Positions 4,801 to 57,756 of a DNA stretch of 64,000 nt are shown piece by piece (position 1 is the stretch's first letter; every line of letters starts with the position of its first letter). The position numbers and the translations under genes were made by a program. The DNA is from an uncultured Planifilum sp. (lineage in GTDB: Bacteria; Bacillota; Bacilli; Thermoactinomycetales; DSM-44946), in assembly GCA_937983105.1 (NCBI GenBank), contig CALKAM010000031.1:85553-149552 (forward strand). The letters run 5' to 3'. Below the pieces are notes generated by a model. That model had not been told where the DNA came from, did no database searches, and saw only the letters and a program-made list of their open reading frames with translations.

Positions 4801-4838
4801 TCAGGGACGCTATCCATGCTACCAGTATAGCCACAAAG

Positions 4839-4867
4839 ATTATATCATAACCGTGAACCACTGACAA
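4839..4867 (-). promoter_or_regulatory. SigA promoter of the rimP-nusA-infB operon
   Basis: Minus strand TTGTCA-17 nt-TATAAT with an extended TG (TGaTATAAT). Confidence 0.75.
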
Positions 4868-9174: not shown

Positions 9175-9338
9175 GGGGCCAAACCCTCCCGTTTTCCACC
9201 TTTCACCGTTCCTACGTTGCTCCATCAAGTGTATCAAAAAATGGACAGACGAACCACACATGTGAAGCCCTTCGGGGAATTCACCTTCTAAACGAATTTT
9301 CCGCAAAGAAACTCTTCACTTATTTTTCCTTCAAAGCA

Positions 9339-14184: not shown

Positions 14185-14196
14185 ATATTGTTCCCC

Positions 14197-14982: not shown

Positions 14983-15000
14983 CCACCGACTCTCCAGTCT

Positions 15001-15783: not shown

Positions 15784-15885
15784 TCCTCCGCAGTATTCCT
15801 CCGGCCATCCATTCTAAGTATATAACAAAAGCCGTTTGATAGAAATGAATCCCCCTGTATCGGGGGATGTCGGGAGATATCCCCG

Positions 15886-16442
15886 TCAGACTTCCATAAT
15901 CTCTTTTTCCTTCGCTCCGATCACCTCGTCCACTTTTTGGATATAACCGTCCGTCAATTTTTGGATCTCATCCTGACCGCGCCGAACCTCGTCCTCGGAG
16001 ATCTCGCCGTTTTTCCCCAATTTCTTGATCTCCTCATTGGCATCCCGCCGGATGTTGCGAATGGCCACCTTCGAATCTTCGCCGCTCTTTTTCACCACTT
16101 TGACGAGCTCCGCCCGACGTTCCTCCGTCAGCGCCGGGATGGTAATCCGGATCACATTTCCGTCATTGGTCGGGGTGAGCCCCAATTCCGATTTCAAAAT
16201 GGCCCGTTCGATTTCAGTCAAGGCGGACTTATCCCAGGGCTGAATCACAAGCAGGCGCGGCTCCGGAGCGGAAATGCTGGCCAACTGGTTAACGGGCATC
16301 TCGCTTCCGTAATAGGAAACCGTCACCTTCTCCAGGAGAGCGGGTGTGGCCCGACCGGCGCGCAGGCTGGCCAAATCCTTCTTCAAAACCTGAATCGCCT
16401 TCTCCATTTTTTCAGCGGATTGCTTTTTGATGTTCTCCAACA

Positions 16443-16443
<1 letters not shown>
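15886..16443 (-). CDS. frr: Ribosome recycling factor
   Basis: [32 protein letters not shown] at 16443 overlaps the pyrH stop. Confidence 0.97.
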
Positions 16444-17204
<761 letters not shown>

Positions 17205-42637: not shown

Positions 42638-42680
42638 TGTAACCGGTGTGCAATCGGTTTGTGACGAATTGGATTATAAT
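42638..42680 (+). promoter_or_regulatory. Triple heptamer direct repeat plus -10 upstream of the secreted esterase
   Basis: TGTAACC-ggtg-TGCAATC-ggtt-TGTGACG-8 nt-TATAAT; no canonical -35. Confidence 0.7.
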
Positions 42681-42719: not shown

Positions 42720-43721
42720 ATGCAAGTCCCCCGGAATCGGAAACGCGTCCCCTGGATTCTTGTCCTAACCCTCATAACCGGCGTAGCGTTCGCGGCAGCG
42801 GGGTACAAACCGGTCTCGGCCGCCGGGAGCTTCACCCGGCATCCGTACGAAGACGGCTTCCAGTTCAAAGTGTATGTTCCCGAAGGCTACGCGGGGGAAC
42901 CGGTCCCGCTCATGGTCATGCTTCACGGTTGCACCCAGAATGCCGATGATTTTGCGGCGGGTACGCAGATGAATCGATTGGCGGATGAAGAAAATTTCAT
43001 CGTCCTCTATCCGGAGATGAATCCCGCGGCCAATATCAACCGCTGCTGGAATTGGTTTTCCGACGCCCACCAGCACCGGGGTTCCGGGGAACCCGCCATC
43101 ATCAAGGGAATGGTGGATTGGGTGAAAAGCCATTACCGGATCGACGGAAACCGGGTCTATGTCGCCGGGCTGTCGGCGGGGGGCGCCATGAGCGTGATCC
43201 TGGGCGCCGCGTATCCCGATGTTTTCCGCGGGGTAGGGGTTCATTCCGGATTGGCATACGATGCGGCCAATTCTTTGCTGGAGGCGACGCTGGCCATGCT
43301 GTACGGGGGTCCGGATCCGGCGACGAAGGGGCATTTGGCCTACAGGGAGATGGGCGACCACAAGCGGTTGATGCCGGTCCTGGTTTTCCACGGTACCGCC
43401 GACTACACCGTCGCCCCCGTCAACGGCGACCAAACCCTCGCCCAATGGGCCCAGACCAACGATTACGCCGACGATGGCAGCGACAATGGGTCGGTGGATG
43501 ATAATGCGGATCAAACCATCACCGGAAGCGCCAACGGGCGGTCCTACACCCGGTATGTCTACCACGACGGTCGCGGCAGCCCCCTGATGGAAAAATGGAT
43601 CGTCAACGGATTGGGACACGCCTGGTCCGGAGGAAGCAGCTCCGGGTCCTACGCCGATCCCCGGGGTCCGGAGGCGAGCCGCATCCTGTGGAATTTCTTT
43701 GCCTCCCGCGAAGGCAGTTAG
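42720..43721 (+). CDS. Secreted PHB-depolymerase-family (LpqC-type) esterase
   Basis: Signal peptide (RKR..LVLTLITGVAFAA), MLHGCTQ oxyanion motif, CWNWF, VAGLSAGGAM lipase box, FHGTADYTV, GLGHAWSGG; ATG at 42720 after GGAGGTG. Confidence 0.88.
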   Translation: MQVPRNRKRVPWILVLTLITGVAFAAAGYKPVSAAGSFTRHPYEDGFQFKVYVPEGYAGEPVPLMVMLHGCTQNADDFAAGTQMNRLADEENFIVLYPEMNPAANINRCWNWFSDAHQHRGSGEPAIIKGMVDWVKSHYRIDGNRVYVAGLSAGGAMSVILGAAYPDVFRGVGVHSGLAYDAANSLLEATLAMLYGGPDPATKGHLAYREMGDHKRLMPVLVFHGTADYTVAPVNGDQTLAQWAQTNDYADDGSDNGSVDDNADQTITGSANGRSYTRYVYHDGRGSPLMEKWIVNGLGHAWSGGSSSGSYADPRGPEASRILWNFFASREGS

Positions 43722-43737
43722 GCGCGCTTTACCACCG

Positions 43738-44631
43738 TTATTCGTCGAGGAACCGCGTCACCCGGCCCAACAATTGCTCCGGATCGTCCACCAGCGGAGA
43801 ATGGCCGCAGTCGACCAGACCCACCGGCCGGGCGCCCGATCCGATGTCCTCCACAATCTCCAGGGCCATCCTCTCCGGCACCACCCGGTCGCGATCCCCC
43901 CACAGCACCAGGGTGGGAGCGACGATCCGCTCCGCCTCCCCCGTCCCATCCACCAGTCCGTTGTGCCGATCACTGATATTGAAGGTATTCAGCGCGTGAT
44001 ACACATCCACCAAATTCCGCTGGGTCAGGATATCCTCCAGATACGCCTCATACCGATCCGGATCGGGACGGCGATGGGTGTAGATGAGCATTTCCCACAG
44101 GTTGCGGAGAAACTGCTTGTCCCGCTGCCTCAGAGCCCGCAGGATCGGGAGCGTTTTGCCCGGATCGCCGGCGATCTCCGCCCTGGTCGACAGCCGCCGG
44201 CCCGTGGGCTGCCCCTTTTCGTCGGTCCCATAAAAGGGGTAGCCCCGGGTCGACACCGAAGCGAGGAGAACCAGTTTTTCCACCTGCTCCGGGCGATCCG
44301 CCGCCAGGTGCATGGCCACCCCGCCTCCCATCGACCAGCCCATGACCGAATAGCGTTCCAATCCCAGGGCGTCGATCCACTCCTTCACATCCGCTGCAAA
44401 ATCCCGAAGGGACTCCACCGGACGGCGATAGGTGGAAAGGCCGAATCCCCGCAGATCGACGGCATACACCCTGAACCGTCCGTCGATCCGCTCCAGGACC
44501 ACATCCCAATGGACGGAGGACGTCATATTTCCGTGGATCAGGACCAGCGGCCGCTCCCCTCCCTCCCGCATTCGATAACCCAGCTTCTCCCCATTGGACA
44601 GCTCCACCGTGCCGATGCGTATCGGCCTCAC
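43738..44631 (-). CDS. Alpha/beta hydrolase resembling Bacillus intracellular PHB depolymerase PhaZ
   Basis: IHGNMTSS, DLRGFG.STY, GWSMGG lipase box (the G-W-S-M-G box reported for B. thuringiensis PhaZ), WGDRD, CGHSPL; no signal peptide. Confidence 0.8.
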   Translation of the reverse strand: MRPIRIGTVELSNGEKLGYRMREGGERPLVLIHGNMTSSVHWDVVLERIDGRFRVYAVDLRGFGLSTYRRPVESLRDFAADVKEWIDALGLERYSVMGWSMGGGVAMHLAADRPEQVEKLVLLASVSTRGYPFYGTDEKGQPTGRRLSTRAEIAGDPGKTLPILRALRQRDKQFLRNLWEMLIYTHRRPDPDRYEAYLEDILTQRNLVDVYHALNTFNISDRHNGLVDGTGEAERIVAPTLVLWGDRDRVVPERMALEIVEDIGSGARPVGLVDCGHSPLVDDPEQLLGRVTRFLDE

Positions 44632-44634
44632 GGA

Positions 44635-45675
44635 TCAATCCCCCCTTTGCTTTTCTTCTTCTCCCCACCGGATCACCGTCGCCCCCCAGGCGTAACCGAT
44701 CCCCGCGCTGACGAGGACGACCAAATCCCCCTCCCGGATTTTGTTCTCCCGGAGTCCCAGCTCCAGGGACAATACGGGATCAAACTGCCCGATGTGCCCG
44801 TAATGATCCAGATAAATCGTCTGATCCCCGGACAGCCCCAGCTCCCCCAAAATCCGTTCGTGGGCCGACCGCTTCATATGAAGGATTCCGAGATAGTCGA
44901 TGTCCCGCTCCGTATAACCGCTCTTGTCCAGGGCTCGGCGAATCGCTTCGAGAAAGTTGCGGATCGACCGCTCCTCCAGCCGCCGCTTCATCCCCCGGGG
45001 ATCCGGGACATCCAGGAGGTGATCCCCCCGGGCGATCCCCTCCGCAGTCAGCGGCATCCTGGTTCCCCCGGCCCGGATCACCACGTCCTCGGAGAAGGAG
45101 CCGTCGGTGATGAGGTGGCTTTCCATCACGGCATTTCGGGACAAGCCCCGCCGCAGAATCACCGCCCCCGCTCCGGCCGCCAGGTTAAACAAGAAGCGGG
45201 TTCGCTCGTTCCGGTAATCCACCAGGTCCACATTCCGGTATCCGCCGGCCAGAAGCACCGTGCGGATCGACGGATCGGCCAGCATCATGTCCTTCGCCAA
45301 TTTCATCCCCAAGATGAGCGTCCCGCAGCGCTGGGACACGTCGAAGGCCCAGGCCCGCCACGCCCCCACCAGCCGCTGCAGGTGAATCCCTGCGGTCCAT
45401 ACGGGATATTCCTTGTACTCTTCGCCGACATATACGACCACATCGATTGTCTCCGGGTCGATGCCCGCCCCGGCGATGGCCTTCCGGGCGGCGCGGGCCC
45501 CCATCTCGCAGGTGTGATCGTCATCCCCGGGAATCGGTTTCTGGACAATCCCCATCTTTCGCTCCACCACATCCACCGGCAGGCCCGCGGCCGCCGCGAT
45601 CTCCCGTCCGGTCATCACCCGCTTTGGAAGATAGACGCCGGTGGACAAAATGCCGATGCTCTCACGGGACACCAT
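44635..45675 (-). CDS. FabH/KAS-III-fold enzyme with Cys-His-His instead of Cys-His-Asn
   Basis: GVYLP, AFDVSQRCG (Cys), ILHMK (His), HYGHIG in place of HGNT, SAGIGYAWG; TGATG coupling to livM. Confidence 0.85.
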   Translation of the reverse strand: MVSRESIGILSTGVYLPKRVMTGREIAAAAGLPVDVVERKMGIVQKPIPGDDDHTCEMGARAARKAIAGAGIDPETIDVVVYVGEEYKEYPVWTAGIHLQRLVGAWRAWAFDVSQRCGTLILGMKLAKDMMLADPSIRTVLLAGGYRNVDLVDYRNERTRFLFNLAAGAGAVILRRGLSRNAVMESHLITDGSFSEDVVIRAGGTRMPLTAEGIARGDHLLDVPDPRGMKRRLEERSIRNFLEAIRRALDKSGYTERDIDYLGILHMKRSAHERILGELGLSGDQTIYLDHYGHIGQFDPVLSLELGLRENKIREGDLVVLVSAGIGYAWGATVIRWGEEEKQRGD

Positions 45676-46679
45676 CAAACCTTCTCCCCCTCAAAACCGG
45701 GATCGGATCGGCGCGCTACCGACCGGGAGGACCGCCACTCCCGGATCGTTCCGACAATCCCCTTGGGAAAAAAGAGGACGGCCAAAATGTACACGATGCC
45801 GAACAAAATGATCCACCGTTCAAACAACAGGTGCACCTTGGCCAAATCGGTCAGCACATCGTGGGTCAGTTCGATCAGCGCCGCCCCGACGATGCCCCCC
45901 AACAGGGTGCCGACGCCGCCGATGATGGTCATCAGCAGCACATCCAGGGTGATCTCGACGGAAAAAACGGCGGTGTTGACGAAGCGGAGGGTCAACCCGT
46001 ACAAAAGTCCGCTCAGCCCTGCGAGAACGCCGGACAGGACGCTGGCCGCCACTTTGTAGTCGAGCACCCGATATCCCAGGGCCTCCGCCCGCTGCTCATT
46101 CTCCCGGATCGCCTGCAGTACCCGCCCCATCGGCGACCGGGTGAAGCGGAGCAGCAGGTAAAAGGTAAAAATCATGAAGAACAGGGCGATGAAATAGACC
46201 GTTTCCCGGTCCCGCAGCCAATCGGGAACCGAAAAGGTGAACCCGTCATTCCCCATGGTGAGGCTGCGCCACTTTTCCGCCGCCACCTGAAACAGGCCGG
46301 CGAAGGCCAGGGTCAACATGGCGTAATAATGGCTCTTCAGCCGCAGGGACAACATGCCCACCCCGTAACTGACCAGTGCCGCCAGGGCGATCGTCACCAG
46401 GACCGACAGAAAAAAGCTTTCCGTCGTCGCGTCCCCCCGCTTCATCAGGATCCCGACGGTGTAGGCCCCGATCCCGAAAAACATTGCATGGCCGAAGGAG
46501 ACGATGCCGGTGAATCCCAGCAGCAAATCGTAACTCATGGCGAAAACGGCGAAGATGAATATCTGCGTCAACAGAATCAGGGTGCTGCGGGAATCCGTCA
46601 GAAAGGGAAGCAGACACAATATCGCCACGATGCCCCCATATAGAAAACGCGACCGGGAAACGGCGGTTTGCCGAACCAT
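45675..46679 (-). CDS. Branched-chain-amino-acid-type ABC permease (LivM-like)
   Basis: LLLGFTGIVSFGHAMFFGIGAY, SPMGRVLQAIRENE.RA..LG, IIGGVGT. Confidence 0.9.
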   Translation of the reverse strand: MVRQTAVSRSRFLYGGIVAILCLLPFLTDSRSTLILLTQIFIFAVFAMSYDLLLGFTGIVSFGHAMFFGIGAYTVGILMKRGDATTESFFLSVLVTIALAALVSYGVGMLSLRLKSHYYAMLTLAFAGLFQVAAEKWRSLTMGNDGFTFSVPDWLRDRETVYFIALFFMIFTFYLLLRFTRSPMGRVLQAIRENEQRAEALGYRVLDYKVAASVLSGVLAGLSGLLYGLTLRFVNTAVFSVEITLDVLLMTIIGGVGTLLGGIVGAALIELTHDVLTDLAKVHLLFERWIILFGIVYILAVLFFPKGIVGTIREWRSSRSVARRSDPGFEGEKV

Positions 46680-46683
46680 CCCC

Positions 46684-47544
46684 TCACCCCCTCGCTCCGA
46701 ACAGGCCGGAAGGTTTAAACAGGAGCACGGCCGCCATCAGCAGCATATTGACCGCCAGGGCGGCGTCGGGCAGAAAATAATTCATGAAGGCGCTGGACAG
46801 TCCCACCATCACCGCCGCCATGGCGGAACCGGAAACGCTGCCCAGGCCCCCGACCACCACGACGATAAAGGCGAGGATCGCGTACTCCATCCCCATTTCC
46901 GCGTAAATCACTCCCGAATACGGAGCGAACAGCATGCCCGCCAGCGCCGCCAAAACGGCTCCCAGCACGAACACCAGCAAAAAATATCGTTTTACATTAA
47001 TGCCTAGCGATTCCACCATCTCGCGATGGATCACGCCCGCCCGGATGATCAGCCCCACCCGGGTCTTCTTCAGCAGCCATTGCAGCAGCGCAAAGACCAG
47101 AGCCCCCGCCGCGATGACAAAGATCCGGTACTTGATCAGGACGATCTCACCGATCCGCCAACTGCCTTCCAGGAGATTGAGCGTCGGAACACTGATCTGA
47201 TTGGGACCCCAGACCACCTTCACCATCTCGCTCAGTACCAACATCACACCGAGGGTGATCAAAATCTGCCGCGTGGAGTCCCCGTAAACCGGCTGAATGA
47301 TCAGGCGTTCCATGATCAAACCCAACAGCAGCCCGGCCGAACATGCGCCCAGAAGCCCCGCAAGAAAACTTCCGGTCCAAAGATAGAACCAGACTCCGGC
47401 ATAGGCGCCCCAGACGAACAGCCCGCCGTGGGCAAAATTGAGCACGTGCATGAGGCCGAAAATGAGAGTCAATCCCGCGGCCAGGAGAAAGAGAAGCATT
47501 CCCGTCGCCAAACCGTTGATGATCAGATTGATCGCAATATCCAT
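46684..47544 (-). CDS. Branched-chain-amino-acid-type ABC permease (LivH-like)
   Basis: GLTLIFGLMHVLNFAHG, TRVGLIIRA, FIVVVVGGLGS. Confidence 0.9.
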   Translation of the reverse strand: MDIAINLIINGLATGMLLFLLAAGLTLIFGLMHVLNFAHGGLFVWGAYAGVWFYLWTGSFLAGLLGACSAGLLLGLIMERLIIQPVYGDSTRQILITLGVMLVLSEMVKVVWGPNQISVPTLNLLEGSWRIGEIVLIKYRIFVIAAGALVFALLQWLLKKTRVGLIIRAGVIHREMVESLGINVKRYFLLVFVLGAVLAALAGMLFAPYSGVIYAEMGMEYAILAFIVVVVGGLGSVSGSAMAAVMVGLSSAFMNYFLPDAALAVNMLLMAAVLLFKPSGLFGARG

Positions 47545-47590
47545 GCGGACCTGACACCCTCTTCCCCGTGATACTCCATCGCGAAGAAAC

Positions 47591-49042
47591 TCAAGCGATT
47601 CCCAGGTACCGCCGTTGCAATTCCTTTTCCTCTTTTAACGCGTCCATCGGACCGGTGTGGACACATCGCCCGCCGTCCAGGATCACAAACCGATCCCCCA
47701 CGGCCTGGGCCATGGAAAAGTTTTGCTCCACCAGCAAAATGGTGGTCCGCTCCTTGATCTGCCGGATCCCTTCGACCATTTTGTCCACCATGATCGGTGC
47801 CAGACCCTTGCTCGGCTCGTCGATCAACAGCAGAGACCGGTTCTGGATGAAGGCCCGGGCGATCGAGAGCATCTGTTTCTGTCCCCCGCTCAATTGCCCC
47901 CCTTTTCGTCGCCAATACACCTTTAAATCGGGGAAGAGCTCCAAAATCCAAGCCAGCCGATCCGACACTGCAGGATCATCCCTCCCCATGGCCACCTTCA
48001 GATTCTCTTCCACCGTCAAATCACCGAAGATGCCCATATCCTCGGGAACATAGCCGATCCCTTTCCGGGCGATCACATGGGTGGGCAGGGATTGGATCTG
48101 CTCCCCTTCAAACCGCACCTCTCCCCGGACCACCGGGGAAAGCCCCATGATCGACCGGATCGTCGTGGTCTTCCCCGCTCCGTTCCTCCCCAACAGCACC
48201 GTCACTTCTCCCCGGGGAACCCCGAAGGAGACCCCCTGGAGGATGTGGAAGCGGCCGATCATGGTGTGAATTCCCTTCACTTCAAGGAGCATGAGCGTCC
48301 CCCCCAGATAGGCCGATTGCACCCGTTCATCCTTCATGATCTCCTCCGGCGTGCCCTCCGCCAGCAGGCGGCCGGCGGCCAGCACCAACACCCGGTCCGA
48401 AAGGCTGAGGATCAGGTCCATCTTGTGCTCGATCAGCAGGATGGTCCGTTCACCCTCCTCCCTCAGAAGGCGGATCACCTCCAGAATGGCCGGCACCTCT
48501 TCCCGGGACATGCCGGCGGTCGGCTCATCCAGCAATAGCAATTCCGTTTCCAGGGCGAGGAGCATGGCGATTTCCAATTGGCGTTGTTCCCCGTGGGTCA
48601 AATTTTTGGCCGGCATCGCCGCCTTTGGCAGGAGACGAACCTTCTCCAGCCAATGCGTCGTCTTTTCTTCCAACTCCGGATATCCGTCGGCCCGGGTCCA
48701 CATCGGATAGCGGATGCCCATGCGGGATTGGACCGCCAGCCGGACATTCTCCCGAACCGTCAGGCCGGGAAATACGTTGGTGATCTGGAAGGAACGGCCG
48801 ATCCCCTCCCGGGTCCGGGCATGCGAAGCGAGGTGGGTGATCTCCCGCCCCTTAAACCGGATGCTCCCCCGGGTCGGCTTCAGCTGTCCGCTCAGCAGAT
48901 TGAAAAAGGTGGTCTTCCCCGCGCCGTTGGGACCGATGATGGACGTGAGCCGGTTCTTCGGAATTTTGACGCTCACCCCGTCGACCGCGACATGGCCCCC
49001 GAAGGCGATGGTCAAGTCGCGGGTTTCCAAAAGGGTCTCCAT
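47591..49042 (-). CDS. LIV-type ABC ATPases LivG and LivF in one reading frame (fusion, or two genes with an internal start at 48292)
   Basis: Two Walker A motifs (GPNGAGKTT, GRNGAGKTT), LTHGEQ and LSGGQ signatures, two DEP motifs. No stop between ..SAYLGG and MLLEVKG; the junction contains a G7 run. Confidence 0.88.
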   Translation of the reverse strand: METLLETRDLTIAFGGHVAVDGVSVKIPKNRLTSIIGPNGAGKTTFFNLLSGQLKPTRGSIRFKGREITHLASHARTREGIGRSFQITNVFPGLTVRENVRLAVQSRMGIRYPMWTRADGYPELEEKTTHWLEKVRLLPKAAMPAKNLTHGEQRQLEIAMLLALETELLLLDEPTAGMSREEVPAILEVIRLLREEGERTILLIEHKMDLILSLSDRVLVLAAGRLLAEGTPEEIMKDERVQSAYLGGTLMLLEVKGIHTMIGRFHILQGVSFGVPRGEVTVLLGRNGAGKTTTIRSIMGLSPVVRGEVRFEGEQIQSLPTHVIARKGIGYVPEDMGIFGDLTVEENLKVAMGRDDPAVSDRLAWILELFPDLKVYWRRKGGQLSGGQKQMLSIARAFIQNRSLLLIDEPSKGLAPIMVDKMVEGIRQIKERTTILLVEQNFSMAQAVGDRFVILDGGRCVHTGPMDALKEEKELQRRYLGIA

Positions 49043-49114
49043 CGGTTCACCCCCGTTCAAGCGAGGAGGCATTCGCGCCCCTTCGACGGCCGGACGCCGG
49101 TCCGCCGCACGCCC

Positions 49115-50329
49115 TTACCGCTGGTTTTCGATCGGCGGTGCCGCCTCCTCCGGTGAAATTTCGCGGATCAACACCGGTTCCGGTCCATCGGAACCCTTTT
49201 TCTTTTCCAGCTTGACCGCATACATCGCCTGGAGGGCCTGATGATCCTCCGGGCGGAAGGTCATTTTCCCTTTGGGCGTCTCAAAGGACATGCCCTCCAT
49301 CGTCTGAATCAATCGCTCCGCATCCGGATCCCCGCCGGTTTTCTCCAGGGCTTCGACGATGGCTATCGCCGCCGACATTCCACCGGGGGTGAACAGGTCC
49401 GGCGGATCTCCGAAGCGCTCCCGATGCTCCCTCACCAGCCAATCGTTGACCGGATTTTTCGGAAGGGAGTAGTGATATACCGTAAAGCCCTCCATCCCGA
49501 CCATCGGCTTCATAACCTGCATCGCCGCGAAATCCGGCACCCCGGTGGAAACTTTGATCCCTCGCTCCTGGACCTTCATGTCCGCCAGCTGTTTCCAAGG
49601 CGTATTGGCCCCCGACCAGATGACAAAGAGGTAGTCCGGCTTTTTCATAATAATTTTCTGGATATTCGGAGTAAAATCGGTGGCCTTCGGATCGGCATAC
49701 TCCTCCAGAACGATTTCAGCCCCCAATTTCTCCGCCGCTCGTTTGAAGGCGGCCACCCCATCCCGACCAAAGGCGTAATCCGGAGCCAGGGTGGCGATTT
49801 TCACCCCCGGTCCGGCGATGGCCCGGGCACCGGCCACGGCGTCCTGGGAGGAATTGCGCGCTGTCCGGAAAATATACCGGTTCCAATCGTCCCCGGTGAT
49901 GCTGTCCGCCACCGCGGGTTCCACCACCATCACCCGCTGGTACTCCTCCGCCAGGGGCAGGATAGCCAAAGTGTCCGCCGAGCTGGACGCCCCCACCAAA
50001 ATGTCCACCTCGTCCTCCTCCAGCAGTTTCGTCGCCTTCTGAACCGCCACATCCGGCTTGGTCTCCGTATCCTCCACGATCCACTCGATGGATCGTCCCG
50101 CCACCCTCTTCGTTCCTTCGGTGGCGTATTCGATTCCCAGCTCAAACCCGTTGATCGTCTGCTCCCCGTAGGACTCCAGCGCCCCCGTCTTTGAAACCAG
50201 AAGTCCGATCTTGATCGGCTCTCCGCTGCCGGAAGCCGACTCGGACCCGGCCGGGCCGCAACCAGTGCTCAGCATCAACAGGACTGAAAGCGCGAGCATC
50301 CATCCGATGATGCTGATCCGCCGTTTCAT
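49115..50329 (-). CDS. LIV-family substrate-binding lipoprotein
   Basis: Lipobox LSTGC; IKIGLL, SKTG.L..YG, YIFRTARNSSQD, DYAFG, FRPEDHQA. Confidence 0.9.
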   Translation of the reverse strand: MKRRISIIGWMLALSVLLMLSTGCGPAGSESASGSGEPIKIGLLVSKTGALESYGEQTINGFELGIEYATEGTKRVAGRSIEWIVEDTETKPDVAVQKATKLLEEDEVDILVGASSSADTLAILPLAEEYQRVMVVEPAVADSITGDDWNRYIFRTARNSSQDAVAGARAIAGPGVKIATLAPDYAFGRDGVAAFKRAAEKLGAEIVLEEYADPKATDFTPNIQKIIMKKPDYLFVIWSGANTPWKQLADMKVQERGIKVSTGVPDFAAMQVMKPMVGMEGFTVYHYSLPKNPVNDWLVREHRERFGDPPDLFTPGGMSAAIAIVEALEKTGGDPDAERLIQTMEGMSFETPKGKMTFRPEDHQALQAMYAVKLEKKKGSDGPEPVLIREISPEEAAPPIENQR

Positions 50330-50357: not shown

Positions 50358-50390
50358 ATCATAGCGGCGAGGGGTTACAAAGCGGTTACA
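50358..50390 (-). promoter_or_regulatory. Heptamer direct repeat plus -10 upstream of the ABC/FabH/PhaZ operon
   Basis: Minus strand TGTAACC-gctt-TGTAACC-9 nt-TATGAT. Confidence 0.7.
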
Positions 50391-50424: not shown

Positions 50425-53400
50425 TCACGAGACGAAGGGGTCCGGATCGCCCCCGCCGACGCCCCGGGCAGGGCCATCAACCGGGGTTTCATCGCCCAAA
50501 TCGCCTTCCCGGATCATCCGATAAAGTCGCTCAGTCTCGGGCATCGGGGCAATGTCGAGCTCCCGCTCCAGCGTTTGCCGGCAGCGGCGGTACCATTTGA
50601 TGGATTGGGGACGATTATTTTTGCGGAAATAGGCGATCATCAGCAGGCGATACGCCTCCTCCCAGCAGGAATCCTGCCGAAGAATCCGTTCACTCCAGTA
50701 AATCACCCCATCATCATCCCCCGCATCCAACAACAGCTGCGCCAGCCGCTCCGCCCCCCGGAGAAACAGCGTATCCAGCCGCTCCCTCTCTTCCCGGCAC
50801 CAGTCATCGTAACGCCGCTCCGGAAGATACTCTCCCTTATACAGGGACAGCCCGGCGGCGAGAACGTTCCGGGCGCGATCCGGGTTCCGCGATTGCAACC
50901 CCTCCAGAATCCGCCGCTCAAATTCGGCGGCATCCAGCTCAAATCCCGACGCCGGATTCAGTCCGTACATCGATCCCTGCCGCTGGATGAAAAAGGGCGT
51001 CGACCGGGCGGGACGACCGGGTTCCAATACCTGGTTCAATGCGTGGAGGGCCACCTTAAAATCCCGGGATGCCGCCGACTTCTCCACCCCCGGCCACAGG
51101 AGGGAGAGAATTTCCTCCTTGGGAAGCAGATGCTGCCGCCGGGTGATAAACAGCTGGAGAAGCTCCTTCGCTTTCCACCGTTGCCACCCCTTCTCCTCCA
51201 CCGGTTCATCCCCCAGCCACACGCGGAAACCGCCCAGGGTCTCCACCCGCAGGGTGTAGCCGGGGTGGAAGGTGATCCGTTCAAAGCCCAAATCCGCCAA
51301 CAAGTGGGAGACATACGCTTCCTTCACACCTTGCCGCTGGGCTTCGAACAGCAGCCGGGTCACCCATTGCACATCGGACGGTCCGAAGAGGGTGCGGCGC
51401 CGGAGGAGGTACTCATGTTCCCCCGTGCGCATCCAGTTTAGAAAGCGCTCCATGCAGGTGGAGAATCGATCCTGTTCCTTCAGTTTAAAGGCCGCCAGCG
51501 CCTGCCACAGGGAAGTGACGGTCAAACCGTAGCTGTCACCACAGCGGGCAAAATCCCGGCTGCACTGCGCAAACCACCCGTCAGCCTCCTTCCAGCGGGA
51601 GGCATGGGCGCAGGCGATCCCCATGGCCAGGCGGATCAGCGTGGAAAGCCAAAAATCCTTCGCCCGCTCCGTTTCGGTCAACGCTTCTTCCCCGCAAGCC
51701 AAGGCCGATTCAACGGAACCCTCCCGCCCGTAGAGCAGACACAGTCCCATCAGCGGTTCCGCCTTTCCCCGGGAAACCTTCAGCTCCTCCATCAGATCCA
51801 GGGATGTCCGGTAACAGTCGGCAGAAAGTTGCGTCTCATACCGGTTCAACAGCTGGACGGCGTGGCCCATGCGCATCCAACCGCACGCCTCCACAAAGGG
51901 AACCTGCCACCGAACCCCCTGCATGATGCCTGCTTCGGCAAATTGCTTGGCCCGTTCAGGCTCCCCCATCATCGCGTGGATCAGGGACAACAGGACATCC
52001 GTTTCCCGGTGGGATCGGGGAAGGCGAAGTCTTTCCCGGCCCGTCTCCACCCGTTTTTTTCGTTCTAGAATTTGTTTGGCCTGAACCAGCTGGCCGGTTC
52101 GCAGGTAATAGCGGGCCTCCAACTCCTCCTCCCCGTCGGGCGGCTCCCTGCTCTTGGCCACCCACTCGCCGGCGTCATCGCCTCGGCCGTAATTGACCAG
52201 GTTTTCGGCGATCAAACGGGTGAGACGCCTCCGCTGCTTTTCCGCCCCCGCGACGCCCTCCAACACATCCAAGGCGCGATTCAAGAGGCGCTCCGCCTCC
52301 TGGGGTTGGATCGTATCGAGGAAAATTCGCGCCTGCCCCTCGAGGGCCATGCTGACTCCCCGGACATCTCCCCTGTCCTCGGCCAGCCGCTCCCCGCGGG
52401 CATAGCAGTCCATCGCCCGGGCATAGGAACAACGGTACCGATTCACTTCCCCCTCCAACACCCAGAGCGAATAGCGCCGATCCTTCACCTCTTCGGGCAA
52501 TTCAGAAAGGGCCGTTTCAATCGGATCCAGCCGGCCCTGATCCAACATCGCCGGGCCGTGTTCCTCCAAAAAACGGCTGATGCTCTCGGCATCCTTCGTC
52601 TCGAGCATCAGGCGAACCGCTTCGTCAAACCGCCGGTTCCGACAGTAATGCTCGGCAGCGAAACGGTAAAAGGAAAGCCGTTCTTCAGGCCTCTGTTCCA
52701 ACTTTTGTCGAAGGTAATTCCGGAAAAGGGGGAGGTAGCAAAAGGCCCCCTCCTCTGTCCGCCTTAGAAAGAGGTGTTGACGCAGGAGATGCTCCTGGAT
52801 TTGTCGGGCGTCCGCCTCCGGATACGATGCCTCCAAATCCTCCAAAGACCACGCATCCAATAGGGCTGTCTGCATAAAAAACCGCCGGACATCGTGGGGT
52901 TGTTTCTCCCATACCGCCGCATCCAGAAAAGGAAACAACTCCGCCCCAATCTCCTCGGCGAACTGCTCTTCCATCCTGCGGAATCTGGCGAACTTTTCCC
53001 CGATCAGCCGAAGGGCCAGTACCCATCCCCCCGTCTGTGCATGGAGCCGTTTGGAGTCGTCCGGCGAAAGGGCGATCCCGTACTCGTCAGCCAGCCACAC
53101 CGCCGCCTCTTCCTCGGAAAAGGAGAGATCATCGCCGGTCAGCTCCAACACGTTTCCCTTCACCCGCATCTCCGCCAACCGGGGCCAATGGGGACGGGTC
53201 CGGCTGATCAGCACGAGGTGGAAACCCTCCGGCAAATGGGACACAAACCACTCCATCCATCGGGCCAGAAACGGTTCCTCCTCCGCCAGATGCCAGTTAT
53301 CCAGCACGAAGACCGCCCGTTCCTCGAGGAGAACCAACTCGTTGAGGAGATCCGATCCCAGATCAAACCATTCGTCCGCTTCCGGGTCTTCCTCCCCCCG

Positions 53401-53712
53401 CTCCAACCGGTGCCGCCAGGTCTCACCGATCGAGGGGAATCGGGCATTCAACGCGCTGAGCAGATAGCGAAAAAAAACGGCCGGTTTCGCATCGCCCTCT
53501 CCGATTCGATACCAACCGGGAGTCAGCTGCTCATCCTGAAAAAAACAGGCGACAGCGGCGGTTTTGCCGTATCCCGGGCCGGCATGGACCAGGGTGAGGG
53601 GGGATTGGACCCATCCTTTCAACTTTTTCGCCAACTCCGGTCTCCGAAAAGTGCGGGGGCTCGGAAGCGGAGGGATCCACTTCGTTTTCAGGATGCGCTG
53701 TCCTGTTCTCAT
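50425..53712 (-). CDS. Large transcriptional activator: MalT-like ATPase, TPR region, C-terminal OmpR-type wHTH plus BTAD
   Basis: HAGPGYGKT Walker A, VFVLDNWH Walker B, helical repeats; LRVETLGGFRV..KAKELL..EILSLLWP; BTAD motifs (D..EFE, YKGEYL, EERERL, EEAYRLLM, ERELDIAPMPET). Confidence 0.9.
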   Translation of the reverse strand: MRTGQRILKTKWIPPLPSPRTFRRPELAKKLKGWVQSPLTLVHAGPGYGKTAAVACFFQDEQLTPGWYRIGEGDAKPAVFFRYLLSALNARFPSIGETWRHRLERGEEDPEADEWFDLGSDLLNELVLLEERAVFVLDNWHLAEEEPFLARWMEWFVSHLPEGFHLVLISRTRPHWPRLAEMRVKGNVLELTGDDLSFSEEEAAVWLADEYGIALSPDDSKRLHAQTGGWVLALRLIGEKFARFRRMEEQFAEEIGAELFPFLDAAVWEKQPHDVRRFFMQTALLDAWSLEDLEASYPEADARQIQEHLLRQHLFLRRTEEGAFCYLPLFRNYLRQKLEQRPEERLSFYRFAAEHYCRNRRFDEAVRLMLETKDAESISRFLEEHGPAMLDQGRLDPIETALSELPEEVKDRRYSLWVLEGEVNRYRCSYARAMDCYARGERLAEDRGDVRGVSMALEGQARIFLDTIQPQEAERLLNRALDVLEGVAGAEKQRRRLTRLIAENLVNYGRGDDAGEWVAKSREPPDGEEELEARYYLRTGQLVQAKQILERKKRVETGRERLRLPRSHRETDVLLSLIHAMMGEPERAKQFAEAGIMQGVRWQVPFVEACGWMRMGHAVQLLNRYETQLSADCYRTSLDLMEELKVSRGKAEPLMGLCLLYGREGSVESALACGEEALTETERAKDFWLSTLIRLAMGIACAHASRWKEADGWFAQCSRDFARCGDSYGLTVTSLWQALAAFKLKEQDRFSTCMERFLNWMRTGEHEYLLRRRTLFGPSDVQWVTRLLFEAQRQGVKEAYVSHLLADLGFERITFHPGYTLRVETLGGFRVWLGDEPVEEKGWQRWKAKELLQLFITRRQHLLPKEEILSLLWPGVEKSAASRDFKVALHALNQVLEPGRPARSTPFFIQRQGSMYGLNPASGFELDAAEFERRILEGLQSRNPDRARNVLAAGLSLYKGEYLPERRYDDWCREERERLDTLFLRGAERLAQLLLDAGDDDGVIYWSERILRQDSCWEEAYRLLMIAYFRKNNRPQSIKWYRRCRQTLERELDIAPMPETERLYRMIREGDLGDETPVDGPARGVGGGDPDPFVS

Positions 53713-53717
53713 GGCAC

Positions 53718-55232
53718 CTACCTCTCCGAGCTGGATTCCTTTTGGGCGAAGAGGCGGAGGACGGCCCGCTTGTCGATCTTGCCCACCGGCGTTTTCGGCA
53801 GTTCGCCGATGAAGCGGAAGGATTTGGGTATCTTGTATGAAGCCAGTTTGCCCCTTAAGTGGGACCTCAGCCCTTCATCGGTCAACCTGGAGCCCTCCTT
53901 CGGAACCACGACGGCCACCACCGCCTCCCCCCATTTGGAATCCGGCGCACCCACCACGACCGCTTGTTCCACTTCGGGATGGTCGGCGATGAGCTGTTCC
54001 ACCTCCGCAGGATACACGTTTTCTCCTCCCGTGACGATCATCTCCTTTTTTCGCCCGACGATGTAGTGATCCCCCTCTTCATCCCGCATCCCCAGATCGC
54101 CGGTCTTGAGCCAGCCGTCGACCAGCGCTTCGGCGGTCGCCCCGGAATTGTTCCAGTAGCGGTCGAACAGGTGCCCTCCCCGAAGCCAAATCTCCCCCAC
54201 GCTTCCCGTCGGAGCATCCGTCCCGTCCTCCGAAACGATCCGGACCTGGTTGTAAATCATCGGCTTCCCGACGGTTCCGGGTTTTCTCCGGGCGGTGGAA
54301 GGATCGGTGACAAAATTGTTGGGGCCCGCTTCGGTCAAACCGTAGCCCTCCCGGAAGGGAAGGCCCTTGGCGGCGAAGGACTGGTACACCTCCCGCGGGC
54401 ACGGGGCTCCCCCGGAGAGGAACTCCCGCATGGTGGGAAAGGACTTGTCGGCAAACCGGGGCGATCGGATGATCTGGTGATACATCGTCGGCACCATCAG
54501 GGCAATGGTACATCCTTCCCGTTCAATCACATCCATGACCTTGTCGGGATCGAAACGGTCGATGATGACAAGGGTCCCCCCCGCATGCAACACCGGGATG
54601 GAGAGGGCGTTCAACCCCCCGGTGTGGAACATGGGCAGGCAGGAGAGGGCCCGATCCTTGGCCGTCAGCTGCCAGCTCAGAATCGTGTTGACCGAGTTCC
54701 AGAAGATGGATCCGTGGGTGAGCACCACTCCCTTCGGTTTACCCGTCGTCCCTCCCGTATAGAGGATCATCGCCGGATCCGACAGCGAGGGATAATCGGC
54801 GGCTTCTCCTTCCTCCGGCTCCGGCGGAAAGTCCGGATCCAGGCGTTCATAGGGGACGACCGCCGGAGCCGACAGTTCCGCCGCCAGGTGTTCCATTCGC
54901 CGGTGAAATGCCAACACCTTCGGCTCGGCATCTTCCAGAATCCCGTTCAATTCCCGGGGGGAAAGTCGCCAGTTCAGCGGGACAAAAACCGCCCCCAGCC
55001 GCTCACAGGCAAAAATCACGGCGAAAACGGATGCATCATTGGGAGAAAGAAATGCTACCCGGTCGCCCCGTGAAATGCCCATCGCCGAGAGCGTTCGAGC
55101 CATCCGGACCGAGCGCCGGTACAGAAGATCGTAACTCCATCGCCTACCGGTTTCTCCATCCACGACGGCGATCCGATCCGGCGAAAGCCGCCTGCGCCCT
55201 TCGAGCCAACCCGTTTCCCAATTCACCGACAT
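53718..55232 (-). CDS. Acyl-CoA synthetase (AMP-forming; FadD/MenE-like)
   Basis: YTGGTTGKPKG, EGYGLTEAGP, WLKTGDLG, GRKKEMIVTGGENVYP, PKTPVGKIDK; likely ATG at 55232. Confidence 0.92.
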   Translation of the reverse strand: MSVNWETGWLEGRRRLSPDRIAVVDGETGRRWSYDLLYRRSVRMARTLSAMGISRGDRVAFLSPNDASVFAVIFACERLGAVFVPLNWRLSPRELNGILEDAEPKVLAFHRRMEHLAAELSAPAVVPYERLDPDFPPEPEEGEAADYPSLSDPAMILYTGGTTGKPKGVVLTHGSIFWNSVNTILSWQLTAKDRALSCLPMFHTGGLNALSIPVLHAGGTLVIIDRFDPDKVMDVIEREGCTIALMVPTMYHQIIRSPRFADKSFPTMREFLSGGAPCPREVYQSFAAKGLPFREGYGLTEAGPNNFVTDPSTARRKPGTVGKPMIYNQVRIVSEDGTDAPTGSVGEIWLRGGHLFDRYWNNSGATAEALVDGWLKTGDLGMRDEEGDHYIVGRKKEMIVTGGENVYPAEVEQLIADHPEVEQAVVVGAPDSKWGEAVVAVVVPKEGSRLTDEGLRSHLRGKLASYKIPKSFRFIGELPKTPVGKIDKRAVLRLFAQKESSSER

Positions 55233-55269
55233 CGCTCCCCGTTTTTCCATGGTGAAATATCCAACGGGG

Positions 55270-55302
55270 AAGATAGCAAAAAGGGGTTGCAAACGGGTTA
55301 CA
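55270..55302 (-). promoter_or_regulatory. Heptamer direct repeat plus extended -10 upstream of the acyl-CoA ligase/regulator operon
   Basis: Minus strand TGTAACC-cgtt-TGCAACC-9 nt-TATCTT, with TG immediately upstream of the -10. Confidence 0.68.
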
Positions 55303-55444
55303 CCCTCTGGACGAGGCCTTCATAACAAAGGCGGGCCGGTCACCCGCTCCAGGCTTTGACAAAGCGTCGGTGGAAAGCCTCTCCGGGGTCAAGGCGCATC
55401 GCCCGACTTCCATCCAAGGGGTCGCCCCCTTCCCGAGAGGACCG

Positions 55445-56281
55445 TCAGGGGATGCTTTCCCCCTGCGCGATCGGATTTTCCTCGTAACTGATCCAGTCGC
55501 TGAAGCTGCCCGCATACAGGCGTCCCTCTCGTCCCGCCAGATGCAGGGCCAACAAATTGGCGCATGCCGTCACACCGGACCCGCAGTAGACGATGGGTTG
55601 CTCCTCCTCGGGAATAAAGGAAAAATCCTTTTTCAATGCCTGGGGAGTTTTCCATCGCCGCCCCTTTTTCAAATTGTTTTTCCAGAAATAATTGACCGCA
55701 CCGGGAATGTGTCCCGCCTTGGCATCGATGGGCTCATACCTTCCCGCAAACCGTTCGGGATCCCGGGAGTCGATCAAAAGCCCCCGGTGCCGCCGAACCT
55801 CCTCCATGCCCACCAGCCATTCGGGGTTACGGATCTGGGGGGTGAACCGGGAGGGCTTCGGATGGACCCGATCCGGCGTTACCGGATACCCCTTCTCCTT
55901 CCACCCCCGGTACCCCTCATCCAAAACCGCCACCTGATCATGACCAAGATACCGGAGCAGCCACCACAGGCGGGCGGCCATCGCTCCTCCCTGATCATCG
56001 TAGGCGACGACGGTTTTGGTGCGATCGATTCCGACCCGCCCCAACGTGTTTGCAAGGGCCTCCAGCTCCGGCAGGGGGTGACGGCCGCCGTGTCGGCGGA
56101 CCGGTCCCGACAGATCCCGCTCCAAGTCCATATATACGGCTCCCGGTATGTGATCCCGTTCATAGGCCTTTCGGCCCGCATGGGGCTTCGACAATTCAAA
56201 CCGGCAATCGACGATGACCAGATTGGAATCCCCCAACCTTTCCCGCAGCCACTTCGGCGAAACGACGGCAGATGGCAGCAC
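55445..56281 (-). CDS. Two-domain rhodanese / sulfurtransferase (SseA-like)
   Basis: DHIPGAVY, GRHPLP, GHIPGAVN, YCGSGVTA active-site loop, YAGSFSDW. Confidence 0.9.
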   Translation of the reverse strand: MLPSAVVSPKWLRERLGDSNLVIVDCRFELSKPHAGRKAYERDHIPGAVYMDLERDLSGPVRRHGGRHPLPELEALANTLGRVGIDRTKTVVAYDDQGGAMAARLWWLLRYLGHDQVAVLDEGYRGWKEKGYPVTPDRVHPKPSRFTPQIRNPEWLVGMEEVRRHRGLLIDSRDPERFAGRYEPIDAKAGHIPGAVNYFWKNNLKKGRRWKTPQALKKDFSFIPEEEQPIVYCGSGVTACANLLALHLAGREGRLYAGSFSDWISYEENPIAQGESIP

Positions 56282-56304: not shown

Positions 56305-57756
56305 TCAGGATACGTTCCTCCCGCGTTCATCCCGGACTTCCGCATCGTATTTCTTGCAGCGCACGTACCCCCGGAAGGCGGACTCCACCCGGCGCCCCCA
56401 CTGAAACAGCGCATCTTCCTGACCGACGGCGGTGATCAGCTGAAGACCGATCGGCAGCCCGGACCGGTCGGTTCCCACCGGGATGGTCAGGGAGGGAAGT
56501 CCGAAGGTGTTGGCATAGGCCACATACGGCAGATACCGGAGAAAGGTTTTCCGGATCGAGAAGATCTCCCCATACACTTTCCCGTGTTCAGGGGCGGCAC
56601 AATGGTACACCGGGAACACCAACACCCGATTTTGTAGAAACTTCTTCACTTCCTCCTCTCCCTTGCGCAGCTGGTCCCTCAGCTGAATCCACTCCTTCTT
56701 GGAGGGGCGGAACAGGCGCGTTCCCAGGAGGGCCCAGGTCAGGTACGGATGCAGCTGCACCCGCATCTTGAAACGCCCCTTTAAATATTGGCGAAGGATC
56801 CCTGAAAACCCCTTTTCCCCACACAGCCGGACCAGTTCCTCCCCTCCGTCGACGGACATGATCCACTGCCACATCAGCGCCGCCTGCTCGAAAAAGGGAG
56901 GCATCACCGTTAAGGAACCGGAAGCGAACTCCGAGCGGATCGCTTCCAACAACTCGGCCGTCTCCTCGCCCACCGGTGCATCGGGGTGGGGGGGCGGAAC
57001 CACCAGCCGATATGCGTCGATATCCACCGAGGGCGGTTTTTGGAAAGCCAAAATGGCATGGATCTTTTCCGCATCCTTCACCGATTTGGCCAGGGCTCCG
57101 ATTCCGAACATGGAGACCTGGTGGGGCTCCTTCACGTCCGGAAAGGCACCGGCCAGGGAAACCTGGCGGTTCCCCGATTTGAAGCCGATCACCCCATTAA
57201 AGTGGGCGGGAAAACGGATCGATCCGCCGATGTCGGAACCGATCCCCACCGCCGCACCGCCCACCGCGATCAGGGCTCCCTCTCCCCCGCTGGAGCCGCC
57301 GGCAGTTCGGCTCAGGTCCCAGGGATTGTTGGTGCGGCCGAACAGCGTGTTCTCCGTTTCCTGGCAATAGCACAGGGCAGGGGTGTTGGTCTTGCCCAGG
57401 ATGATGGCCCCTTCCTCCTTCAACCGCCTGACGATCTCAGCGTCTGCTGCATCGACCGCCCCCCGGCGATGGGGCAATCCGCCGGTGGTGTGCATCCCCT
57501 TGACGAAAAAGGCTTCCTTCATGCTGATGGGGACGCCCCACAGCCGTCCTCGGGCTTTTCCTTCCTGCAGCAGCCGGTCCCGTTCCTCCGCCTCCCGCCT
57601 GGCTTCATCGAACCGGGTTTCCACGACCGCCCGGATGTGGGGATTCACCCGCTCGATGTGCCGGATATACCCCTCGACCGCTTCAGCGGAGGTGATCTCC
57701 CCCGCCCGGATTTTCTCCGCCAAGGTGGAGGCATCCATGTCCAACAATTCCGTCAT
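56305..57756 (-). CDS. Amidase-signature family hydrolase (FAAH-like)
   Basis: GVPISMKE (Lys), GKTNTP, GGSSGGEG, GSDIGGSIRFPA, GLPIGLQL. Confidence 0.9.
   Translation of the reverse strand: MTELLDMDASTLAEKIRAGEITSAEAVEGYIRHIERVNPHIRAVVETRFDEARREAEERDRLLQEGKARGRLWGVPISMKEAFFVKGMHTTGGLPHRRGAVDAADAEIVRRLKEEGAIILGKTNTPALCYCQETENTLFGRTNNPWDLSRTAGGSSGGEGALIAVGGAAVGIGSDIGGSIRFPAHFNGVIGFKSGNRQVSLAGAFPDVKEPHQVSMFGIGALAKSVKDAEKIHAILAFQKPPSVDIDAYRLVVPPPHPDAPVGEETAELLEAIRSEFASGSLTVMPPFFEQAALMWQWIMSVDGGEELVRLCGEKGFSGILRQYLKGRFKMRVQLHPYLTWALLGTRLFRPSKKEWIQLRDQLRKGEEEVKKFLQNRVLVFPVYHCAAPEHGKVYGEIFSIRKTFLRYLPYVAYANTFGLPSLTIPVGTDRSGLPIGLQLITAVGQEDALFQWGRRVESAFRGYVRCKKYDAEVRDERGRNVS

Follow-up and report, generated by a model that had tools for sequence, protein, structure and literature searches.

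STAND switches and SARP activators are well studied only as MalT-LuxR and SARP-NB-ARC combinations. MalT of Escherichia coli is built in the order of a nucleotide-binding oligomerization domain (NOD), an arm, a helical-repeat sensor and a C-terminal DNA-binding domain of the LuxR/GerE helix-turn-helix type, whereas AfsR of Streptomyces coelicolor follows the order SARP-NB-ARC-TPR. Large SARPs are divided into two subgroups, in each of which the SARP domain is N-terminal, and SARP-LAL regulators unite SARP and LAL/MalT-type parts in one polypeptide (bioRxiv 10.64898/2026.09.02.748808). Here we describe a regulator of 1095 amino acids (aa) from a stretch of 64,000 nucleotides (nt) of an uncultured Planifilum sp. 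(contig CALKAM010000031.1; this whole stretch is called the window below), in which a MalT-type STAND switch is joined to a C-terminal SARP module. We consider it probable that the protein is a MalT-clade STAND activator with a SARP output that acts at three local promoters and activates its own synthesis.

This MalT-SARP architecture is not rare. A word-indexed protein search with the regulator gave 833 matches, of which the best 120 are all full-length (994-1109 aa, above 1,035 aa in all but one) and 40-49% identical to it, with one relative at 83%; their hosts include Paenibacillus, Bacillus sensu lato, Geobacillus and Thermoactinomycetaceae. With one genome scanned for each species, 508 loci encoding a relative were detected, full-length orthologues being present in more than 500 Bacillales genomes. 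The SARP module alone, compared with 1.84 billion cluster representatives, retrieved 372 clusters at E <= 1e-30. Approximately 100 of the best 150 of these clusters are proteins of ~1,000-1,170 aa with the module at the C-terminal end; the remainder are mostly shorter, with the match at or near the C-terminal end, and many of them may be fragments. The databases name the relatives only as "BTAD domain-containing putative transcriptional regulator" or "LuxR family maltose regulon positive regulatory protein", and our literature search found no paper on a C-terminal SARP/BTAD module, nor any studied MalT-SARP member. It is a large family in which we found no studied representative. Its spread is patchy: the gene is single-copy in the genome of the window, and a full-length copy was found in 5 of the 41 genomes of the same order that were searched, being absent from one genome of the same genus.

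Domain architecture of the regulator

The domains and the nucleotide-switch residues are located as follows.

50425..53712, minus strand: regulator gene, 1095 aa, MalT-type STAND with a C-terminal SARP module (open reading frame, profiles, model)
52693..53712, minus strand: NOD, comprising nucleotide-binding, helical and winged-helix domains (NBD-HD-WHD), residues ~1-340 (MalT profile and alignment with structure 8bob)
51277..52692, minus strand: arm and helical-repeat (TPR-like) sensor, residues ~341-812 (model, Foldseek, weak Pfam matches)
50503..51276, minus strand: SARP module, an OmpR-type winged helix (~816-925) followed by BTA (926-1070) (Pfam, fold)
53560-53580, minus strand: Walker A motif GPGYGKT, residues 45-51, in the NOD
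53296-53301, minus strand: Walker B motif LDN, D138-N139, in the NOD
52732-52734, minus strand: L327, at the position of the ADP-latch His (alignment with MalT and relatives)

Residues 9-485 match the NCBIfam MalT profile (profile positions 4-483; E 2e-63), with a score of 215 bits that lies under the equivalog cutoff of 537. At the other end of the protein, Pfam BTAD is found at residues 926-1068 (E 2e-24; 86.9 bits, above the cutoff of 22.1), preceded by a weak match to Trans_reg_C at residues 849-898. The sensor between them has weak Pfam matches to TPR_MalT (E 1.5e-5, below the cutoff) and TPR_12. No LuxR/GerE domain was matched by Pfam or NCBIfam, the C-terminus being a winged helix-turn-helix with BTAD; NB-ARC was not matched either, and AfsR aligns with the regulator over the SARP domain only.

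The search of solved structures gave the same arrangement. The single sequence matched the MalT NOD (8bob; residues 10-407, E 2e-30) and, over residues 820-1071, the AfsR SARP domain (8hvr), and a 119-member family profile matched these two with E 1e-67 and E 3e-4, respectively. The AlphaFold (AF2) model, built on an alignment of 119 relatives, has a pLDDT of 90.3 and a pTM of 0.76. In the Foldseek search with this model, the MalT NOD (8bob_C) was the top hit, and we also observed the archaeal STAND-TPR protein PH0952, TPR proteins, EmbR (2ff4), and the AfsR SARP domain (8hvr/8k60) with a TM-score of 0.80-0.81 and a root-mean-square deviation of 3.2-3.4 A. Residues ~342-810 of the model form an all-helical repeat solenoid.

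Thus, the arrangement that the sequence-only reading had proposed, with a MalT-like ATPase at the N-terminus, a TPR-like middle and a C-terminal winged helix with BTAD in a protein of 1095 aa, is confirmed by the profiles, the AlphaFold model and Foldseek. The same reading had described the protein as AfsR with its modules inverted. It is correct that the SARP module lies at the end opposite to that in AfsR, but the frame of reference is wrong: the NOD carries marks of the MalT clade, seen in the family-profile alignment as the N-terminal loop and as FCYxPLF in the WHD, and is not of the NB-ARC type. Since the order of NOD, arm, sensor and DNA-binding domain is that of MalT itself and the NOD belongs to the MalT clade, the regulator is best read as a MalT chassis in which the LuxR-type output has been replaced by a SARP output, rather than as AfsR turned round.

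In comparison with MalT, the regulator has a homologous NOD, including the N-terminal loop, Walker A and B motifs and FCYxPLF, the same domain order and a similar length before the output domain. By analogy, inducer and ATP would presumably lead to multimerization and then to cooperative binding at repeated sites. The differences concern the output, which here is an OmpR-type winged helix with BTA, the sensor, in which the similarity to TPR_MalT is as weak as stated above, and the sites, as MalT boxes are situated upstream of the -35 position whereas here the predicted sites, phased direct heptamers, overlap it; in addition, the second Walker B Asp and the WHD His are absent in the genus of the window. 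With AfsR the regulator shares the fold of the output, the combination of a STAND switch with SARP, and a predicted operator of nearly the same geometry, with the repeats 11 bp apart and the centre near -30, replacing the -35 box. AfsR differs in having the SARP domain at the N-terminus (here it occupies ~816-1070 of 1095) and an NB-ARC-clade NOD, and in the present case the host belongs to Bacillales and the predicted targets are catabolic and transport genes rather than genes of secondary metabolism. No sign of an input from a Ser/Thr kinase was noticed, although no search aimed at it was made. Similarly to the SARP-LAL regulators, SARP and MalT-type parts are found in one polypeptide, but here there is a single DNA-binding module, the C-terminal SARP, together with TPR-like repeats.

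Among the 119 relatives the winged helix is the best-conserved portion, with 64% identity to the window protein, compared with 53% for BTA, 45-49% for the sensor and 26-34% for the NOD. In the NOD, G47, G49, K50 and D138 are invariant across the family. Two other positions of the nucleotide switch deviate in the window protein: the second acid of Walker B is replaced (D139N), as is the WHD His (H327L), L327 being aligned with the His of the MalT motif FCYHPLF. The Asp and the His are kept in 116 of the 119 relatives and in MalT, so that the family overall has this pair and the window protein has not; both changes together are confined to the window protein and the one relative that is 83% identical to it. 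Changes of this kind shift other STAND proteins towards the active state. The bond of the WHD His with the ADP beta-phosphate is pivotal for autoinhibition and is conserved in resting MalT (PMC10427625), STANDs are reset to the resting state by ATP hydrolysis (PMC4381067), and an HD-to-GV change in the equivalent motif of AfsR causes autoactivation (bioRxiv 10.64898/2026.09.02.748808).

The regulator gene of a sister species (genome G001, locus L094, G001:C23:21000-40000) is frameshifted in a run of 7 G. In this assembly both the regulator and the transporter ATPase genes are split (L094 ~4814-4839 and 9267-9295), and an intact, 99%-identical regulator is present in other assemblies. Because of these three circumstances, the frameshift is probably a homopolymer sequencing or assembly artefact and not a sign of a pseudogene.

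Predicted operators and promoter geometry

Three candidate operators were found near the regulator gene. One precedes the gene of an acyl-CoA ligase, which lies directly upstream of the regulator; another is situated between the regulator stop codon and the start of the gene of a Liv-type substrate-binding protein (SBP), the first gene of a downstream operon; and the third precedes the gene of a secreted esterase on the opposite strand.

55270..55302, minus strand: ligase-regulator promoter, TGTAACC-CGTT-TGCAACC (55285-55302), 9 nt, -10 box TATCTT (55270-55275), -35 hexamer absent
50358..50390, minus strand: second operator and promoter, before the SBP gene, TGTAACC-GCTT-TGTAACC (50373-50390), 9 nt, -10 box TATGAT (50358-50363)
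42638..42680, plus strand: third operator, before the esterase gene, phased repeats TGTAACC, TGCAATC and TGTGACG, 8 nt, TATAAT

The window contains the repeat pattern three times (0.33 expected), and the entire 3.48-Mb genome has exactly these three sites, all of them within the cluster. The sister species has retained all three boxes with their -10 elements, whereas the intervening spacers have diverged.

For comparison we used 80 related loci of ~23 kb each. In this set, TGTAACY-N4-TGTAACY is almost confined to the region ahead of the SBP gene (69 loci) and that ahead of the ligase gene (32 loci); the few remaining sites are situated before a thiolase-ligase pair or before two hydrolase-like genes. 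The box of the ligase gene is present whichever side of the regulator the ligase occupies, and every locus examined has the box together with the regulator gene. The consensus over 114 sites is tttTGTAACTcatTTGTAACT-N9-TAtgAT, and TAnnnT is localized exactly 9 nt past the second heptamer in 99 of them. Across these sites, no hexamer similar to TTGACA is seen at the -35 position. The lack of a -35 box fits activation rather than repression, and the conservation of the winged helix fits that of the operator.

Assuming a start site ~7 nt after the -10 box, the two heptamers would span approximately -39 to -22. SARPs bind direct repeats spaced by 11 or 22 bp and activate transcription. In described SARP promoters the repeats are 11 bp, or one helical turn, apart, the 3' repeat is 8 bp from the -10 box, and the afs box is centred at -29.5 and overlaps the -35 position (PMC10936776). 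The predicted operator fits this geometry within 1 bp (9 nt to the -10 box by our delimitation), and thus SARP-like geometry is observed at the three promoters here and at the 114 candidate sites in relatives, all of these being predicted sites.

The ligase-regulator junction and possible self-activation

Whether the regulator could be transcribed from the promoter carrying its own putative site depends on the features between that promoter and the regulator start.

55331..55347, minus strand: terminator-like hairpin between the rhodanese gene and the ligase promoter, close to the latter (pattern scan; the fold z-score is not significant)
53718..55250, minus strand: acyl-CoA ligase gene, AMP-binding (Pfam AMP-binding, E 3e-86; the start is uncertain)
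53713..53717, minus strand: junction of 5 nt, GTGCC, lacking a terminator and too short for a promoter; the same gap is found in the sister species

The ligase ends with the stop codon TAG at 53718-53720 and the regulator starts with ATG at 53710-53712, its ribosome-binding site GGAGAGG being embedded in the last ligase codons. The 5-nt distance of the sequence-only reading is therefore exact, and the junction is identical in the sister species. Pattern scan and folding found no terminator-like or promoter-like site between the two genes, and the junction folds no better than shuffled sequences. Within the ligase gene, a crude consensus scan found no promoter-like site of at least 9/12 on the minus strand. 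Because of the 5-nt gap, the embedded ribosome-binding site, the lack of an intervening terminator or promoter, the upstream hairpin and the conserved junction, it is plausible that the regulator is co-transcribed here with the ligase from the operator-bearing promoter. As this promoter carries the predicted site of the regulator itself, self-activation is plausible here as well. Downstream, folds between the regulator and the SBP promoter are no better than those of shuffled sequences; with no supported terminator before that promoter, read-through into the transporter operon is possible.

The related loci restrict this prediction to a part of the family. Of the 80 loci, 14 have the ligase gene immediately in front of the regulator gene; they belong to Paenibacillaceae, Thermoactinomycetaceae and a Brevibacillus metagenome-assembled genome (MAG), with gaps from -11 to +90 nt. 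The genes overlap (-8 and -11 nt) in Thermoactinomycetaceae, and are separated by 23-39 nt in several Paenibacillus and by 69-90 nt in others; in two of the latter (L002 and L067) the intervening DNA has a clear hairpin of the terminator type as well as a promoter-like stretch. In Bacillaceae the ligase gene is situated beyond the hydrolase gene and has its own operator, and hence co-transcription with the ligase is not needed for the signalling logic. Upstream of the stand-alone Bacillaceae regulators we found no operator, the best matches having 4-7 mismatches, as in the background. Thus, co-transcription of the ligase and the regulator, which the sequence-only reading had proposed, is predicted for this locus and the sister species and would apply to few of the loci compared. 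Likewise, the autoactivation that it had derived from the site-bearing promoter is consistent with the box before the ligase gene, the short gap and the lack of any intervening site, but it is not a trait of the family; positive autoregulation is plausibly a local, lineage-specific trait.

The mechanism that we propose is as follows. The NOD of the resting regulator would be closed, by analogy with MalT and AfsR. Binding of a small-molecule inducer to the helical-repeat sensor, together with ATP, would open the NOD and cause multimerization, so that two SARP modules could be placed side by side on the two heptamers, 11 bp apart, at target promoters having a -10 box and no -35 box. RNA polymerase would then be recruited, as it is by AfsR at the afsS promoter. 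The regulon would comprise the ligase-regulator pair, the operon of the Liv-type ABC transporter, a KASIII-like protein and a poly-3-hydroxybutyrate (PHB)-depolymerase-type hydrolase, and the secreted esterase. Through the ligase promoter the regulator would activate its own synthesis, this loop being predicted for this lineage and absent from most relatives. As signal, the likely candidate would be a breakdown product of a short-chain polyester, such as 3-hydroxybutyrate, its oligomers, acetoacetate or a CoA ester.

Several observations weigh against this model. The esterase operator is atypical, with a spacing of 8 nt after a degenerate third repeat. The match to AfsR obtained from sequence alone is weak (E 6e-5 to 3e-4); the SARP assignment rests on Pfam BTAD together with the fold. 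An internal promoter in the ligase gene is excluded by the crude consensus scan only. Most relatives have no operator upstream of the regulator, and autoregulation is accordingly dispensable for the family. Finally, due to D139N and H327L the nucleotide switch of the window protein may work unlike that of MalT.

The first group of alternatives accepts the activator and questions its control. The same activator could govern the same regulon with no real feedback, if most of the regulator came from a constitutive promoter located in the ligase gene, or from transcription reading through from the rhodanese gene; the junction would then reflect compact packing. The expression of the regulator without an upstream operator in most of the family, the hairpin and promoter-like stretch that part it from the ligase in some Paenibacillus, and the need of a feedback loop for some basal expression to start would all agree with this; yet the scan of the ligase gene revealed no such promoter, a terminator-like hairpin lies upstream of the ligase promoter, and tight packing recurs as the 5-nt gap in the sister species and as overlaps in Thermoactinomycetaceae, and we regard the alternative as unlikely. 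It is also conceivable, although improbable in our view, that the regulator of this genus is a hair-trigger or inducer-independent one. H327L and D139N would in this case bias it towards the open ATP-bound state, giving a self-locking and possibly bistable loop, and the cluster would be controlled mainly by the amount of the regulator and not by a ligand. The distribution of the two changes, confined to the window protein and its closest relative, the alignment of L327 with the MalT His, the role of this His in autoinhibition (PMC10427625), the autoactive HD-to-GV variant of AfsR (bioRxiv 10.64898/2026.09.02.748808) and the resetting of STANDs by ATP hydrolysis (PMC4381067) speak for such a bias. 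Vice versa, the sensor and the arm are well conserved, and ligand control is therefore probably retained, and other autoinhibitory contacts of MalT (the N-terminal loop, sensor-NBD) could compensate.

The remaining alternative is that the boxes belong to another factor, such as CcpA, an extracytoplasmic function (ECF) sigma factor or a different OmpR-family protein, while the regulator acts elsewhere or represses. The sequence TGTAAC resembles the -35 element found at certain ECF sigma promoters of Bacillus, and also one half of the cre box bound by CcpA. Nevertheless, a cre site is ruled out, as the box is a direct repeat and not a palindrome, its central 4 nt vary and the CG core of cre is missing. 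The ECF reading is ruled out as well: TAnnnT is 10 or 21 nt away, which does not fit ECF geometry, and the -10 box is of the sigma-A type. As the box accompanies the regulator gene in all loci examined and is found nowhere else in the genome of the window, and as the absent -35 box fits activation and not repression, we consider control by another factor highly improbable. The MalT-clade activator with a SARP output thus remains the preferred reading of the locus.

Predicted regulon content, candidate signals and neighbouring genes

The minus-strand cluster (43.7-57.8 kb) comprises, in this order, the amidase, rhodanese, ligase, regulator, SBP, ATPase, two permease, KASIII-like and hydrolase genes, and the esterase gene is convergent to it.

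56305-57756, minus strand: amidase
55445-56281, minus strand: rhodanese
43738..50329, minus strand: downstream operon, from the SBP gene through the hydrolase gene
49115-50329, minus strand: Liv-type SBP gene (Pfam)
47591-49072, minus strand: fused LivG/LivF-like ATPase (Pfam)
46684-47544 and 45675-46679, minus strand: permeases (Pfam)
44635-45678, minus strand: KASIII-like protein (PRK06840, 503 bits, cutoff 315)
43738-44631, minus strand: alpha/beta hydrolase of the intracellular short-chain-length polyhydroxyalkanoate (PHA) depolymerase type (NCBIfam NF050089, 424 bits, cutoff 300)
42720-43721, plus strand: secreted PHB-depolymerase-type esterase, convergent to the cluster (NF050058, 337 bits, cutoff 150)

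The hydrolase matches NF050089 at the equivalog level, this profile describing the Bacillus-type intracellular short-chain-length PHA depolymerase, and NF050058 describes the catalytic domain of type-1 extracellular PHA depolymerases. No PHA synthase was found in the 99.6%-complete genome of the window with TIGR01836 (class III/IV) and PF07167 (class I/II). The equivalog-level matches to intracellular and extracellular short-chain-length PHA depolymerases, the thiolase under the operator in some Paenibacillus and the lack of a detected synthase together point to polyester or 3-hydroxyacid catabolism as the content of the regulon. With two PHB-depolymerase-type enzymes and no PHA synthase found, the cluster looks like a scavenger of external polyester or its breakdown products here, and the enzyme of the "intracellular" type may act on imported oligomers.

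3-Hydroxybutyrate, its oligomers, acetoacetate and their CoA esters are reasonable candidates for the inducer, and the data favour none of these over the others. The structures do not help in this respect, since the closest solved homologues of the SBP (3n0x and 3nnd; E ~1e-110) are structural-genomics entries whose names carry no ligand. The sequence-only reading had suggested that the inducer might be an acyl-CoA or an oligoester supplied through the ligase. The ligase is a predicted member of the regulon everywhere, with no physical tie to the regulator, and the data place it in the regulon only; an inducer of this origin is a guess. All its matches to NCBIfam FadD/MenE-like profiles lie below the cutoff. 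The longest open reading frame of the ligase, with a mechanically assigned start, begins with TTG at 55292, a position within the operator. Translation probably starts instead at GTG 55226 (with GGGGAG 8 nt upstream), ATG 55232 or ATG 55250, leaving a short leader.

A wider reading, which we treat as doubtful, is that the Bacillales MalT-SARP group is a dedicated sensor-activator of the mobilization and uptake of short-chain polyester and 3-hydroxybutyrate, which in the genus of the window has become a self-locking switch for scavenging external PHB. Our literature search found no dedicated activator for these processes. If true, a signal, an operator and a regulon could be assigned to a MalT-SARP family for the first time, and PHB/3-hydroxybutyrate utilization in Bacillales would obtain a named regulator; the switch residues together with self-transcription would constitute a bistable or memory-type switch in an organism that makes no PHB. 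What is new here is the precise candidate operator, the coherent polyester/3-hydroxyacid regulon and the two natural substitutions of switch residues. The Bacillales group would be the most tractable entry point into the family, as its operator is sharp and its regulon small, local and interpretable; the metabolic interpretability of the regulon also leaves fewer candidate inducers. Orthologues are present in cultivable strains of Bacillus, Priestia, Neobacillus and Paenibacillus, and the natural D139N/H327L variants offer a ready test of the nucleotide latch in a MalT-clade protein. A literature search for a regulator of Bacillus phaZ returned nothing relevant, and no description of the gene context is given in the papers found on PHB in B. 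thuringiensis and B. cereus.

The great majority of the 80 loci share the gene order regulator, SBP, ATPase, two permeases, KASIII-like protein and hydrolase. The esterase itself has no homologue within 10 kb in these more distant loci; the esterase operator is kept in the sister species. The transporter genes are absent beside the regulator in the Paenibacillus tyrfis/elgii/ehimensis group and in the Brevibacillus MAG. In these loci (L007:15912-18435; L009, L012, L017, L018, L061) the KASIII-like and hydrolase genes directly follow the regulator, and a TGCAAC-type box is situated before the gene of a 477-aa protein and a second alpha/beta hydrolase gene.

Further variants concern the ligase. 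In some Paenibacillus (L002:7115-9914; L003, L034, L067) the operator precedes a thiolase gene, which is followed by the ligase gene; between this ligase gene and the regulator there are then a terminator-like hairpin and a promoter-like stretch. In some Bacillaceae, an inserted second pair of genes, a divergent ligase (37-40% identity) and a KASIII-like protein (38-41%), separates the regulator from the SBP operator; such loci (L005, L008, L011, L013, L015, L021, L023, L029, L040, L078 and L079; ~13980-16900) come from Fredinandcohnia, Bacillus timonensis-type and other genomes. Across families, the SBP is conserved at 68-78% identity, compared with 39-49% for the regulator.

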